Of a stretch of DNA of 36,540 bases, positions 1 to 36,540 are shown piece after piece. The DNA lies in the IMG/VR virus record IMGVR_UViG_2874920711_000014. The stretch is one strand, 5' to 3'. Positions within the stretch are counted from its first letter, which is position 1. Every line of letters starts with the position of its first letter. The notes below the pieces were generated by a model that saw only the letters and a program-made list of their open reading frames with translations, made no database searches and was not told where the DNA came from. The DNA comes from a virus (taxonomy: Duplodnaviria > Heunggongvirae > Uroviricota > Caudoviricetes). Made by a program: the position numbers and the translations under genes.

Positions 1-799
1 CTACGATAACCGCGCATTCAACATGGCTATCTGTTCGTCGTTCATGTCATCAATCCACATACCGTAAATTTCATACACCATTTGCGCAGTTTCATGCCCC
101 ATCTGGCTGGCTATAAATGCCGGGTTCGCTCCTGCCGTCAACAGCCAGCAGGCAAAAGTATGTCGCGTATGGTACGGATTACGGCGGCGAATACCAGCAC
201 GTTTTACTGCTGCATTCCATCTTGCACCCAAACTGCTTACCGAGTAATAAGGTTTCTGTTTTTCGTTACACACCCTGGGCATGAAAACAAAATGCAGTTT
301 TTGCTTTTCAGTTCTGCCGTACTCCCGATGATAAAAAGTGATTTCGCTTTTGCGATGATGCCCGGTCAGTTTGTATTGCTCCTTCAGTGCTTCAAGAGCC
401 GGCTGCAGTAATGTTACCGTCCGGATCCCGGCATTTGTTTTTGGGGACCGAACATATCAAGTATCGTCAGGTTTCTTCTGACATTCACAATTCCCTTCTC
501 GAAATCCACATCCTCCCACGCCAGAGCTGCCAGTTCCCCGTGACGAAGCCCGGAGTAAACGGCAAATTTCCACAAGTTTTGGCTCTGTCCTTTTTCACTT
601 TCCATTAATGCATTGAATTCTGTTTTAGATAACGGGTCAGGCTTTATTCTGTTTCGCTGTAATTTTTTTACTCCTTCAAATGGTTTGGTTGATATAAATC
701 CCGACTGATACGCAAAACGTAACAACGAACAGAGCAGGGCGATATAGTTATCAACTGTGCGCACGGTTCTTCCTTTTTTGTTGGATCTTGGATTATCTA
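1..799 (-). pseudogene. int: Phage tyrosine integrase, 3' ~280 codons; N-terminus missing, interrupted by IS630, internal -1 frameshift near 430-445
   Basis: Track ORF 1..282(-) carries ...NPYHTRHTFACWLL... (H-x-x-R-H catalytic box). The same frame stays open upstream (...LLQPALEALKEQYKLTGHH...). The tail of ORF 414..1850(-) carries ...GLRHGELAALAWEDVD... A further 47 bp of the gene sits at 1954-2000 before IS911 begins. Confidence 0.8.
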
Positions 800-1951
800 A
801 ATAGCTGCGCTTAATACCGCTACACTTTTGCCAGTCCATGTTTGCCTCCGGGAATGGGCTGACGGTTTCCATAAAATGGCGAACTTTTTTCAACAGTTGC
901 CACATTGAGCGGCACTGATGATTACGCGTTATTGTGTCGTGAAGTGCCTGCCATAGCCGTTCAACATGATTCACCCATGGCGAGTAAACCGGCTGATAAA
1001 TGACCCTGAACTTCGGGTTCTCCTTCAGCCAGCTCTGTGTTTCCCGGCTTTTGTGGATAATGTAGTTGTCCACGATCAGCGTGATGGTTTTCGCCCGACG
1101 GTATGTCGCTTTAAGCCGCTTCAGCAGGCTGATGAACAGCGCCGAACTTTTGCTGTTGCCGCCCACATAGCTGACTTTACCTGTCCCGCTGTGCAGCGCT
1201 CCGGCCAGATAATATTTTTCATTCTGTCCCGGCGTGACCACCCGTTTTTGCTGTCCGCGCAGTTGCCAGTCCGCACCGATTTTGGGATGAAGATGGATAT
1301 CCACTTCATCTTCATAAAAGACCGGATGCTCTGCGCTGCATTCGTCCAGTGCTTTATGGATTGCTGCCATCTTTTCATCTTTATGCGGGTCACGGATACG
1401 CAGAGTTGGCGCAGCCCTTCGCCACACAATCCCCGCAGACGGCAACCAGCGGCGAACGGTTCCGGCATTTAACTGGCAACCGGTTATCTCATTGATTTTT
1501 ATTGCCAGCAGTTCTGTACTCCAGCGTGAACGCTGGTAGCCAAAGTCGCCGGGAGAATGTTTTACCAGCTCACGTAACAGTGTGCAGATATGCTCAAACG
1601 GCCAGCGACGGGCACGCCCGGCAGGTAATGATTTCAGTCCCTCAACACCCGACTGCGTGAACCAGTTAATCCAGCGTCCAACAGAGGAACGGGCGCAGCA
1701 GAGCGTTCTGGCAACGTCGCTGACACGGTCGCCCCGGTGCAGCATCAGCATGGCAGTCAGTCTGCGGGCATAATTTTTATCGTGTGTTTTATGGATGGCT
1801 TTCTGCATCAGGCGTCGTTCGTCACGGGAAATTGGTGCTATGATCGGCATTGCTCAGTCCGGTTGGTGATTTGTTTTGATTTGGCGATTGATCAGATCGC
1901 ACAATCCGGGCTAAGTTCCCTCAAAGTGATCTACTATTCCGCGCAGCTATT
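800..1951 (-). mobile_element. IS630 copy 1 (~1152 bp), inserted at 5'-CTAG-3' in the integrase gene with TA duplication (798-799 and 1952-1953)
   Basis: Terminal sequence AATAGCTGCGC... is the same at both ends (inverted) and in copy 2. Flanks reconstruct gattatcTAggtaaag. Transposase matches copy 2 until the C-terminus. Confidence 0.9.
820..1850 (-). CDS. IS630 transposase with C-terminal -1 frameshift; reads through into integrase remnant (track ORF 414..1850, 478 aa)
   Basis: Protein identical to the 343-aa copy-2 transposase up to ...ETVSPFP. This copy has GGG at ~850-852 where copy 2 has a 4-base run (~7539-7542). Confidence 0.85.
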
Positions 1952-2073
1952 TAGGTAAAGCGTTTCTCCATGCAGCAGTTCATTCCGGTAGTTTAAGATA
2001 TGAAGTGGCACACTGAATTTGGCCACCTGAACAGAGGTGATATGCTCACCTCAGAACAACACAGGTGCTCCAA

Positions 2074-2149
2074 TGAAAAAAAGAAATTTTAGCGCAGAGT
2101 TTAAACGCGAATCCGCTCAACTGGTTGTTGACCAGAAATACACGGTGGC
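2074..2149 (+). pseudogene. insN: IS911 orfA, N-terminal 25 codons only, cut by IS600-like left end
   Basis: atgaaaaaaagaaattttagcgcagag... translates [26 protein letters not shown], then the IS600-like terminus TGAGGTAGCC begins. Confidence 0.7.
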
Positions 2150-2213
2150 TGAGGTAGCCTGAGTTTAACGGACACTCCTTCCTGAAATAGAATGGCATCA
2201 GAAGGAGCTAATA

Positions 2214-2476
2214 ATGAGCAGAAAAACCCAACGTTACTCTAAAGAGTTCAAAGCCGAAGCTGTCAGAACGGTTCTTGAAAATCAATTTTCGATCAGTGAA
2301 GGCGCTTCCCGATTATCCCTTCCTGAAGGCACTTTAGGACAATGGGTTACCGCCGCCAGAAAAGGGCTCGGTACTCCTGGTTCCCGCACGGTGGCTGAAC
2401 TGGAATCTGAAATTCTGCAACTGCGTAAGGCGTTAAATGAAGCTCGCCTTGAGCGAGATATATTAAAAAAAGCAAC
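2214..2476 (+). pseudogene. IS600-like (IS3 family) orfA, truncated after ...ERDILKKAT by IS30
   Basis: Track ORF 2214..2582 starts MSRKTQRYSKEFKAEAVRTVLENQ... and reads into the IS30 end. Identical to orfA at 9278 and 26350(-). Confidence 0.75.
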
Positions 2477-34679: not shown

Positions 34680-34702
34680 TTTAATTTATCGCGAGAAAAA
34701 CA

Positions 34703-35606
34703 ATGTCTGTAGTGATATCAGGTGCGCTGACTGATGGCGCAGGTATCCCATGTCCGGATACCATATTATTCTGAAATCCCGGGTAAACACCCGGAAGTGG
34801 TTATGCACACTGTTGCTGATGTGATGACAGGAAACGATGGTGAATACTGTTTCCATGCGCGGACTGGAAAATATGGTGTGTATCTGAAACAGGACTGGCG
34901 CAACGAGTACAACGTTGGCGACATTGCTGTATATGAGGACTCAAAGCCCGGCACGCTGAATGACTTTCTGATTGCTCCTGATGAGGGCGACCTGAAACCG
35001 GATGTCGTCAAACGCTTTGAGGAAATGGTGGCGCAGGCGCAGCAGAGCGCCGGGGCCGCAGCCGGAAACGCACAGCAGACGGCGCAGGATGTGGCGGCAG
35101 CCGCAGGTTATGCCCGCGCAGCAGAACAGGCCAAAAATGACATTGATGCTGCGCTGACCGGCACTCTGAAAACGGCTAACCATCTGTCTGAAATCGCAGC
35201 AGCAGGCGAAAAGGCACAACAGAAGTCCCGGGATAATCTGGGGCTGAAAAGTGCAGCCACGATGGAAGCACAGAGCGACATTTACGACCGGACAAAAGGC
35301 CGTCTGGCGATACCCGGCGCATTCGGCTTTGGGCGTGCTTTTCTGCCTGAAGATGTTATCCGTTTTGACACTAAGAGTGATTTCCTGGCCTGGGTAAGGA
35401 ATGCGCTGCCAAGTGAATATTCCGTTGCTGGCCCTACGACATCATCATACCCGACACACGGTTTGAAGGGGTGCTCAGCATCCGGTGGACTGATGCACGC
35501 CCTGAGACAACAGAACCGAGGTACAGAGCCAAATCCCTTACTTTTTACGGCATTAACGGCCCCATTTATCACACCCGCTACTGCTACTGGCCCATATCCA
35601 GACTGA
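34703..35606 (+). CDS. Side-tail-fibre-like protein (lambda Stf N-terminal domain), frameshifted near 34765
   Basis: ATG ~34703 (MSVVISGALTDGAGIPCPDT...), then track ORF 34734..35606 with ...IAVYEDSKPGTLNDFLIAPDEGDLKPDVVKRFEEMV... followed by an Ala/Gln-rich stretch. Confidence 0.55.
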
Positions 35607-35966
35607 CTGGCTGGGTGAAAATAAATATAACCACAGAAGATATTATTTACAGAATCGTGGCGAGCTCTGTCCGCAACAGATGGGGAGACCCTGACATTGG
35701 CGGGCTGATTATTGCTGCGTACCAGGGAGAAGCTGACGGTGATAAAGTCATCAGACTTGTCAGGGGCAGTCATACAGAGGCTCACGACTGGGACCGGTGG
35801 GGATTTCAGTGCCCAGTACTCCCACCGGAACGTATATAGCATCCCCACAATTTTTCATTACGGGATGTTCAGAGCATTCATTACCGGGGTCATATTGCGC
35901 CCTGTCCGGGGGCCGGATACATATGTCTCTGGCGCAATGCTTGGGCTTTTTATTCGCACATCGTGA
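35417..35966 (+). other. Possible tail-fibre C-terminal (receptor-binding) module spread over three frames
   Basis: Track ORFs 35471..35839, 35712..35966 and the start of 35797..36540 overlap. Frame with ...LTFYGINGPIYHTRYCYWPISRLTGWVKINITTEDIIYRIV... is open from ~35417. Confidence 0.3.
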
Positions 35967-35976
35967 GGAATGCACC

Positions 35977-36540
35977 GTGGAAATTAAAAAAATCATTAAT
36001 CCCCGTTATACCGAAAGTGGCGCAGTAGACTGTGACGTTTTTTTTGACGACAGGGACCAGGCAGTCCCCTACACAGCCACCGCTGATGATGTCGCTTCGA
36101 CGGGTCAGCAAATCTGGCAGGAACTGCAAAGCGGCAAATGGGGTGAGATAGCCCCATTCACTGTGACACCAGAAATGCTGGAAGCGGCCAGAGAGGCCAG
36201 ACGTCAGGGAATTGAAGCATGGCGCACAGAACAGGAGGCGAAGCCGTTCACGTTTGAATGGAACGGTCGTATCTGGAATGCTGGCCCCAACTCACTGGGC
36301 CGCCTTTATCCGGTGGTAATGGCTGCGAAATCCGACATTGTACGGGACGTGATGACGTGGGGTGATGCCGATAATCAGCAGGTGAAACTGTCGATGCCGG
36401 AACTGGAAGAACTGGCGGCAGCAATGGCTCAGGCACAGGTTGAGCGCAATGACGAGATTTATCGCCGTCAGCGGGAGCTGAAGGAAGAGCTGAATAGTCT
36501 GAAGGATTTGAATTCGGTTAGGAATTTTATCGTGGAATAA
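35977..36540 (+). CDS. Hypothetical protein downstream of the second fibre cassette (possible non-canonical chaperone)
   Basis: GTG at ~35977 with Shine-Dalgarno tgaggaa; ...WNGRIWNAGPNSLGRLYPVVMAAKSDIV... ending ...EIYRRQRELKEELNSLKDLNSVRNFIVE. Lacks the C-terminal WP motif of the Tfa at 34134. Confidence 0.3.
   Translation: MEIKKIINPRYTESGAVDCDVFFDDRDQAVPYTATADDVASTGQQIWQELQSGKWGEIAPFTVTPEMLEAAREARRQGIEAWRTEQEAKPFTFEWNGRIWNAGPNSLGRLYPVVMAAKSDIVRDVMTWGDADNQQVKLSMPELEELAAAMAQAQVERNDEIYRRQRELKEELNSLKDLNSVRNFIVE

Follow-up and report, generated by a model that had tools for sequence, protein, structure and literature searches.

One-base shortening of G/C runs in a prophage remnant of chromosome CP026824.1 is almost certainly a consensus artefact

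The locus and its references

The stretch of DNA considered here (the window, 36,540 nucleotides; CP026824.1:4,649,654-4,686,193, from the 4.97-Mb chromosome of assembly GCA_002949875.1) is flanked by ttcA/dbpA and the sit operon and contains an ipaH-type prophage remnant with a contractile tail, full of insertion sequence (IS) elements of the IS630, IS30, IS3 (IS600-like, IS2, and ISEc52-like), IS110, IS66, and IS5 families. An earlier examination of the letters and open reading frames (ORFs), the sequence-only reading, had described phage genes split into successive ORFs, and these splits exist: the portal gene at 14313-15515 and 15533-15862; the head morphogenesis gene in ORFs at 15771, 15983, and 16329; the baseplate J gene at 29460-29912 and 29915-30697; and the DUF2612 ('gp48-like') gene at 30699-30896 and 30875-31303. 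The origin of such breaks is the subject of this report. The deposited consensus of CP026824.1 almost certainly gives G and C runs one base too short, as a systematic under-call.

The source organism appears to be a Shigella, S. dysenteriae, as judged from neighbouring accessions (CP026808, CP026816, CP026818, and CP026821 are plasmids of S. dysenteriae) and from exact protein matches named S. dysenteriae. The platform was probably PacBio long reads without short-read polishing, again judged from neighbouring accessions; one of these, CP026832, is cited as a PacBio sequence of S. dysenteriae 14 (Kim et al., 2018).

No close relative of the prophage is present in the phage collection, the nearest entry reaching ~80% identity and in the terminase only; genomes of E. 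coli were therefore taken as references. The prophage is present at 99.3-99.5% identity in eight genomes of the enteroinvasive E. coli (EIEC) type, and in the annotated EIEC example VL46 (L001) none of its genes is frameshifted. Closer references were obtained by exact look-up with lineage-specific queries. The TerL fragment truncated by IS600 (13069-14322) retrieved CP027027.1 (L030), UYIS01000021.1 (L031), a 10,153-nucleotide draft contig (L032), and Logan contigs assembled from public reads, three of which are 10,058 nucleotides long and comprise the IS600-to-IS600 segment plus a few dozen IS bases at each end. The hub protein retrieved a part of CP027027.1 (L028) covering window positions 21581-34425. 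CP027027.1 is collinear with the window across the same IS600, IS30, IS5-fragment, IS66-fragment, and IS110 insertions. All of these comparison assemblies are other isolates of the lineage that share its IS insertion sites, not reads of the window strain. The best lineage references were tiled over 35,677 of the 36,540 bases for a whole-window tally, and 10 kb on each side of the window in the same record were set against E. coli and lineage references; counts for the flank refer to 17 kb.

Direction, base, and run length of the deficits

Over the 35,677 nucleotides of the lineage-reference tally the window shows 15 substitutions and 56 one-base deficits (31 G and 25 C, plus strand), and no one-base insertion is attributable to it over these aligned bases; the imbalance of 56 deletions against 0 insertions has a binomial p of 3e-17. 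All but one of the deficits (55/56) lie inside G/C runs, and the remaining one is at a site where the lineage itself varies between G7 and G6T. This site, at 20196-20202 in the DUF4054 gene, reads G7 in L035 and VL46 and G6 followed by T in L030-L034, and both DUF4054 protein alleles are present in public S. dysenteriae assemblies (P0046 and P0052); the G6 of the window would fit a G7 minus one base.

Among runs of at least four bases, 52 of 198 G/C runs are shortened as against 0 of 380 A/T runs (Fisher p = 4e-27), and A/T runs of any length contribute no deficit to the tally. The shortened fraction climbs from ~0.5% of G/C runs of three bases (3/607) to 13% of runs of four (21/158) and 76% of runs of five (25/33), with 5/6 runs of six and the single run of seven also affected; for runs of at least five bases in the window the figure is 31/40, or ~78%. 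Deficits are located in housekeeping genes as well as in phage genes, in IS elements, and in the non-coding ends of IS elements, and their rate tracks run length and composition, not gene or function. A candidate A-run difference at 4572, seen against an IS of 95% identity, vanishes against the lineage reference.

The same pattern is seen with VL46. Across 14 kb of alignable phage DNA the window differs from VL46 by 45 substitutions and 28 one-base window deletions, with no one-base insertion in the window, and 15 of 19 phage genes carry at least one of the deletions. G/C runs of three, four, five, six, and seven bases are shortened in 3/267, 6/73, 13/23, 3/3, and 2/2 cases, and A/T runs of at least four in 0/131. 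The comparison also shows two changes of another kind, an 11-base tandem duplication (17704) and the loss of a 4-base GTCA unit (29859), which are considered below.

Independent assemblies and rebuilt proteins

Lineage assemblies carry the longer runs. The Logan contig ERR5984627_590 (L033) matches window positions 13006-23041 with 0 substitutions and 22 one-base differences, and at all 22 it is the window that has a G/C run shorter by one. Over this 10-kb segment there is likewise no substitution in L030-L032, there are 4 in L034-L035, and the longer run stands at all 22 sites in L030-L035. In VL46 (L001) the same head-to-sheath segment differs by 22 substitutions and 22 one-base deletions. 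Every relative keeps the head-to-sheath genes intact, with, for example, a portal protein of 513 amino acids and a head morphogenesis protein of 229/256 amino acids. Over the 12.9 kb at 21581-34425, CP027027.1 (L028) differs from the window by 3 substitutions and 26 G/C-run deficits, all in the window.

Two of the deletions relative to VL46, of a T at 15475 and of an A at 16226, fall outside homopolymers of VL46. The prediction made before the test was that these sites are G5 and C5 runs in the lineage of the window. Proteins were rebuilt with each alternative base, the window's own substitutions being kept, and searched in a collection of 15 billion proteins: only the protein repaired with G at 15475 and that repaired with C at 16226 exist there, in S. 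dysenteriae assemblies. The T- and A-repaired alternatives have no exact match in the same collection. The Logan contigs read GGGGG and CCCCC at the two sites. Eight of the ten repaired proteins tried have an exact match elsewhere, six besides this pair; the repaired spike, sheath-initiator, and DUF2612 proteins match exactly in other Shigella assemblies.

Some references have differences of their own. CP027027.1 and the draft contig L032 are without one base of the sheath gene at window position 22258 (GGCAGCAG to GGCACAG), which the window keeps, as do L031, VL46, and the Logan contigs. Since the base also occurs in these three, the window is correct at 22258, and the sheath split of 187 + 254 amino acids in CP027027.1 and L032 is a lesion or error of that sub-lineage and not of the window. 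Other public complete genomes that carry the prophage also look rich in indels: set against the window, L018 (CP046676.1) has 290 gap openings over 10 kb, and L014 (CP091398.1) has 38. Long-read assemblies with many errors may be fairly frequent in this lineage.

Copies of IS elements within the window

Repeated elements allow the window to be compared with itself, and all five indels between copies of an IS are GGGG or CCCC runs cut to three. The claim that the broken copy is one base short in a 4-base C/G run had been made for four sites in the IS630, IS30, and IS600-like elements; self-comparison upholds these and adds a fifth, 12948. The 4-base context holds for such sites but not as a general rule, many of the deficits falling in runs of 5-7 bases. 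Comparison within the assembly misses part of the errors, since a site can be short in every copy, as the end of IS2 is (6373 and 12586).

One frameshift among the IS elements is of a different nature. IS3-family transposases use a programmed -1 frameshift between orfA and orfB. In IS2 these frames occupy 7553-7975 and 7933-8838, an AAAAAAG motif at 7926-7932 (plus strand) lies in the overlap, there is a TnpB match, and the two IS2 copies differ by no indel. This motif is the natural programmed -1 site of IS2, is no error, and stands outside the artefact.

Housekeeping genes beside the window

The sequence-only reading had suggested housekeeping genes of the same assembly as a check, and G/C-run deficits are found there. 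Outside the window, ttcA carries G5 to G4; sitA carries both G6 to G5 and C5 to C4, which split it into three ORFs; uspF carries G4 to G3; and nifJ/ydbK carries C4 to C3 and G4 to G3. G/C runs of four bases are shortened at a like rate in the flank (5/42, 12%) and in the window (21/158, 13%). Overall error density is ~1.5 one-base deficits per kb in the window and ~0.5 per kb in the adjoining chromosomal genes; G/C runs of at least five bases number 28 in 14 kb of phage DNA and 8 in 17 kb of chromosomal flank.

Real lesions of the prophage

Damage of another kind is inherited by related genomes that have the same IS junctions: the GTCA loss, the 11-base duplication, and the IS insertions are shared in this way, whereas the 56 G/C-run sites are not. 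The break in baseplate J had been counted among the homopolymer events but is actually the loss of one GTCA unit at 29859 relative to VL46. CP027027.1 (L028) and L023 read as the window does there, and the split into 150 + 251 amino acids (228 in L026) also occurs in L020, L021, L023, L026, L027, and L028; the break is real because related genomes share the loss. The duplicated unit in the DUF2213 gene (TGGCGATGTGG) is present once in VL46, twice in the window and most S. dysenteriae relatives, and three times in L036 (SRR2994194). The DUF2213 protein has 413 amino acids, not 449, in L030-L033. The unit behaves like a small variable-number tandem repeat. Related genomes also have in common the IS insertions and a ~4-kb deletion that removed the tail genes from tube to tape measure. 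Because the GTCA loss, the duplication, the insertions, and the ~4-kb deletion are real, the prophage is truly defective even after correction; about fifteen genes are broken only on paper.

Origin of the shortened runs

The indel pattern is directional and confined to G/C runs, it is absent from independent assemblies of the lineage, and it is present in housekeeping genes of the same assembly. Under-calling had been preferred to independent decay in the sequence-only reading, and both the longer runs in lineage assemblies and the broken housekeeping genes support that preference. The consensus would drop one base from G/C runs with a likelihood that climbs steeply with run length, would spare A/T runs, and would never add a base; each dropped base would shift the frame, and gene callers would then divide the gene into successive ORFs. 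The damage seems greatest in phage genes mainly because G/C runs of 5-7 bases are numerous there, and poorer consensus polishing in multi-copy DNA may add to the excess in the phage region. The true genome most likely carries full-length runs, and most of the ORF breaks are then not pseudogenes.

Several points weigh against this account. The independent assemblies come from related isolates that are not demonstrably the window strain, and the platform of CP026824.1 is judged from accession adjacency. The long-read lineage assemblies CP027027.1 and UYIS01000021.1 are without the defect at these sites, and the defect is therefore specific to this assembly, not generic to a platform. Moreover, G/C runs of at least five bases are shortened in 31/40 cases in the window but in 3/8 in the flank (p = 0.04), a gap that a uniform error model does not fully explain.

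Frameshifts that are real, produced by replication slippage in the strain (for instance after loss of mismatch repair) within the genome decay of Shigella, would accord with the pseudogenes that Shigella genomes accumulate, with the true-remnant status of the prophage, whose IS insertions, 4-base deletion, and 11-base duplication are common to relatives, and with the proneness of G/C runs to slip in vivo. Relatives that share every IS junction, however, give 0-3 substitutions per 10-13 kb against 22-26 frameshifts; the changes are deletions only, in G/C only, and of exactly one base, affecting ~78% of runs of at least five but 0/380 A/T runs; and 4-base runs in housekeeping genes are shortened at a per-run rate like that of the window. 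Extrapolated to the genome, slippage of this extent would put thousands of frameshifts, some of them in essential genes, into a culturable strain. Real slippage is thus very improbable, and excluded in practice because of the ratios of indels to substitutions (22:0 and 26:3), the restriction to deletions in G/C, the near-saturation of runs of at least five, and the involvement of conserved genes. Slighter still is the chance that the short runs are real through some unprecedented process, such as a defect of polymerase or repair, by which most G/C runs of at least five lose exactly one base while A/T runs are spared and almost no substitutions arise.

A pairwise difference does not by itself show which side errs, and it could be the other assemblies that over-call an extra base while the window is correct. 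Yet the longer form occurs in at least eight independent assemblies (complete genomes, draft whole-genome shotgun sequences, and Logan contigs), restores a full-length ORF in every gene, and is the form found in the window's own intact IS630, IS30, and IS600 copies, so that over-calling has hardly any claim. The breaks might also be recoding sites or phase-variable tracts (programmed frameshifts, transcriptional slippage, or contingency loci), given that a programmed -1 frameshift does operate in IS3-family elements of the window (AAAAAAG in IS2) and that some phages have programmed frameshifts in tail chaperone genes. The 56 sites, though, are without a slippery heptamer and lie at arbitrary positions in non-coding IS ends and in at least 20 genes unrelated to one another. 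Several such sites (3-5) fall in some of the genes, and all relatives show single uninterrupted ORFs. Contingency tracts are usually at least seven bases long and differ between isolates by both +1 and -1. Classical phase variation needs longer tracts than 3-5 bases; most of those here are 4-5 bases, and every change is -1 and confined to this assembly, while the other isolates agree with one another. Recoding or phase variation at the sites is accordingly most improbable, and the deficits are better ascribed to under-calling in the consensus of CP026824.1.

Comparison with known systems and significance

The G/C-run breaks are an assembly artefact and biologically nothing new. PacBio continuous-long-read consensus that is unpolished or thinly covered typically shows a bias towards deletions at G/C runs. 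A literature search for G/C-specific PacBio deletions gave no usable statement, only general remarks on homopolymers in long reads. Errors in long-read assemblies are mainly short homopolymer indels, and tools exist to repair the gene fragmentation that results (PMC12007338); the window is alike in that one-base homopolymer indels fragment the genes of a contiguous 'complete' genome. It differs in having deletions only and at G/C runs only, whereas in the nanopore assemblies of that study deletions occurred mostly at A/T stretches and about half as often at G/C (PMC12007338).

With genuine Shigella decay the window shares IS600, IS30, IS2, IS630, IS110, IS66, and IS5-family insertions and the real lesions; those are inherited lesions, seen also in CP027027.1, the draft contig, and the Logan contigs, while the 56 G/C-run deficits occur in this assembly only. 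Programmed -1 frameshifting in the IS3 family likewise gives two overlapping ORFs in successive frames, but it is conserved, does not differ between the two IS2 copies, and has nothing to do with G/C runs. Mismatch-repair-deficient E. coli likewise accumulates one-base homopolymer indels that rise with run length; its spectrum also includes insertions, A/T runs, and many transitions, and the window has no insertions, no A/T-run changes, and almost no substitutions.

Shigella is a textbook case of genome decay, and pseudogene counts taken from this record would be inflated; by extrapolation, errors genome-wide would be of the order of thousands in a public 'complete' Shigella chromosome. Pan-genome presence/absence, calls of prophage intactness, and annotation of IS transposases drawn from the record would likewise be inflated or distorted, and sitA, ttcA, nifJ, and uspF look inactivated but very probably are not.

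Features of the window and minor observations

Positions of the segments, IS elements, and individual deficits are given in Table 1. The 290-amino-acid product of 34734-35606, in the distal tail-fibre region, is unique to this assembly; relatives encode a protein of 422 amino acids. By exact look-up, the chimeric ORF of 478 amino acids at 414-1850 (minus strand) likewise occurs in a single record, that of GCA_002949875.1.

Table 1. Features of the window, with one-base G/C-run deficits and inherited lesions; positions are those of the window.
Feature	Position	Strand	Content and differences
Prophage integrase remnant beside ttcA	1-796	-	G5 to G4 at 443 (against L031, L023)
IS630-family copy 1	797-1954	-	G4 to G3 at 850; transposase ORF runs into flank, 478 amino acids (414-1850) against 343
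IS30 copy 1	2477-3697		Intact; identical to copy 2
IS3-family orfB (ISEc52-like), then second-prophage replication genes	3698-6436		DUF977, ydaV-like ATPase, ydaU; deficits 4543, 5667, 6099, 6373
IS630 copy 2	6437-7595		Intact
IS600-like (IS3 family) copy 2	9213-13033	+	Contains nested IS30 copy 2 and IS2 copy b (11268-12598); deficits 12586 (IS2 end), 12817, 12948 (IS600 orfB)
IS30 copy 2	9541-10761		Intact; identical to copy 1
Head-to-sheath segment between two IS600 copies	13034-23014	+	TerL fragment, portal, head morphogenesis, DUF2213, Gp24 cement, DUF2184 capsid-like, four small proteins, neck terminator, sheath N-terminus; 22 deficits: 15472, 15970, 16225, 16262, 16954, 17027, 17235, 17995, 18120, 18320, 18721, 19399, 19564, 20196, 20559, 20822, 21249, 21972, 22358, 22366, 22849, 22958
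11-base tandem duplication (TGGCGATGTGG)	17704-17714	+	DUF2213 gene
IS5-family fragment in IS30 copy 3	24063-24973	+	Deficits 24167, 24584, 24754
IS30 copy 3	24974-26086	-	Two C4 to C3 deficits, 25057 and 25233 (also placed 25059, 25235)
Baseplate segment	27353-31451	+	Plug, hub, spike, sheath initiator, baseplate J, DUF2612, tail-fibre start; 8 deficits: 27470, 28645, 28680, 29022, 29239, 30787, 31308, 31447
GTCA unit loss	29859-29862	+	GTCA x3 to x2; baseplate J split into 150 + 251/260 amino acids
IS110-family element	31452-32895	-	Adjoins tail-fibre gene; real insertion, common to CP027027.1; deficits 31483, 32710, 32767, 32811, 32831; ORF lengthened to 484 amino acids against 398 in relative
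Distal tail-fibre, tail-fibre assembly, and phage_tail_N genes	32896-35871	+	Deficits 32896, 33002, 33919, 34747, 34790, 35432, 35763

The IS elements are nested and repeated in ways of their own. IS2 copy a (6364-8849) holds IS630 copy 2, and three times (2149-2476, 9213-9540, and 26087-26414) the left end of IS600 is interrupted by IS30 at an identical point, which suggests that an IS600::IS30 composite was copied as a unit. IS30 copy 2 is reversed relative to the otherwise collinear CP027027.1 (L030), both flanks matching, and the only local substitutions (9553, 9554, and 9560) sit in its terminal inverted repeat; either the IS was really inverted or inserted anew, or one of the two records was assembled differently here.

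The window and the E. coli references L002 and L003 share a 23-base stretch (6227-6249, in the region of the ydaU-like replication gene) that CP027027.1 (L030) lacks; the two Shigella genomes seem to differ here by a real indel. Outside the window, the abgR region carries an A (L005 18292) and a TTT (18735-18737) that E. coli S3 does not have. Both are common to L031 and look real, and abgR may possibly carry a real lesion (279 amino acids against 302).

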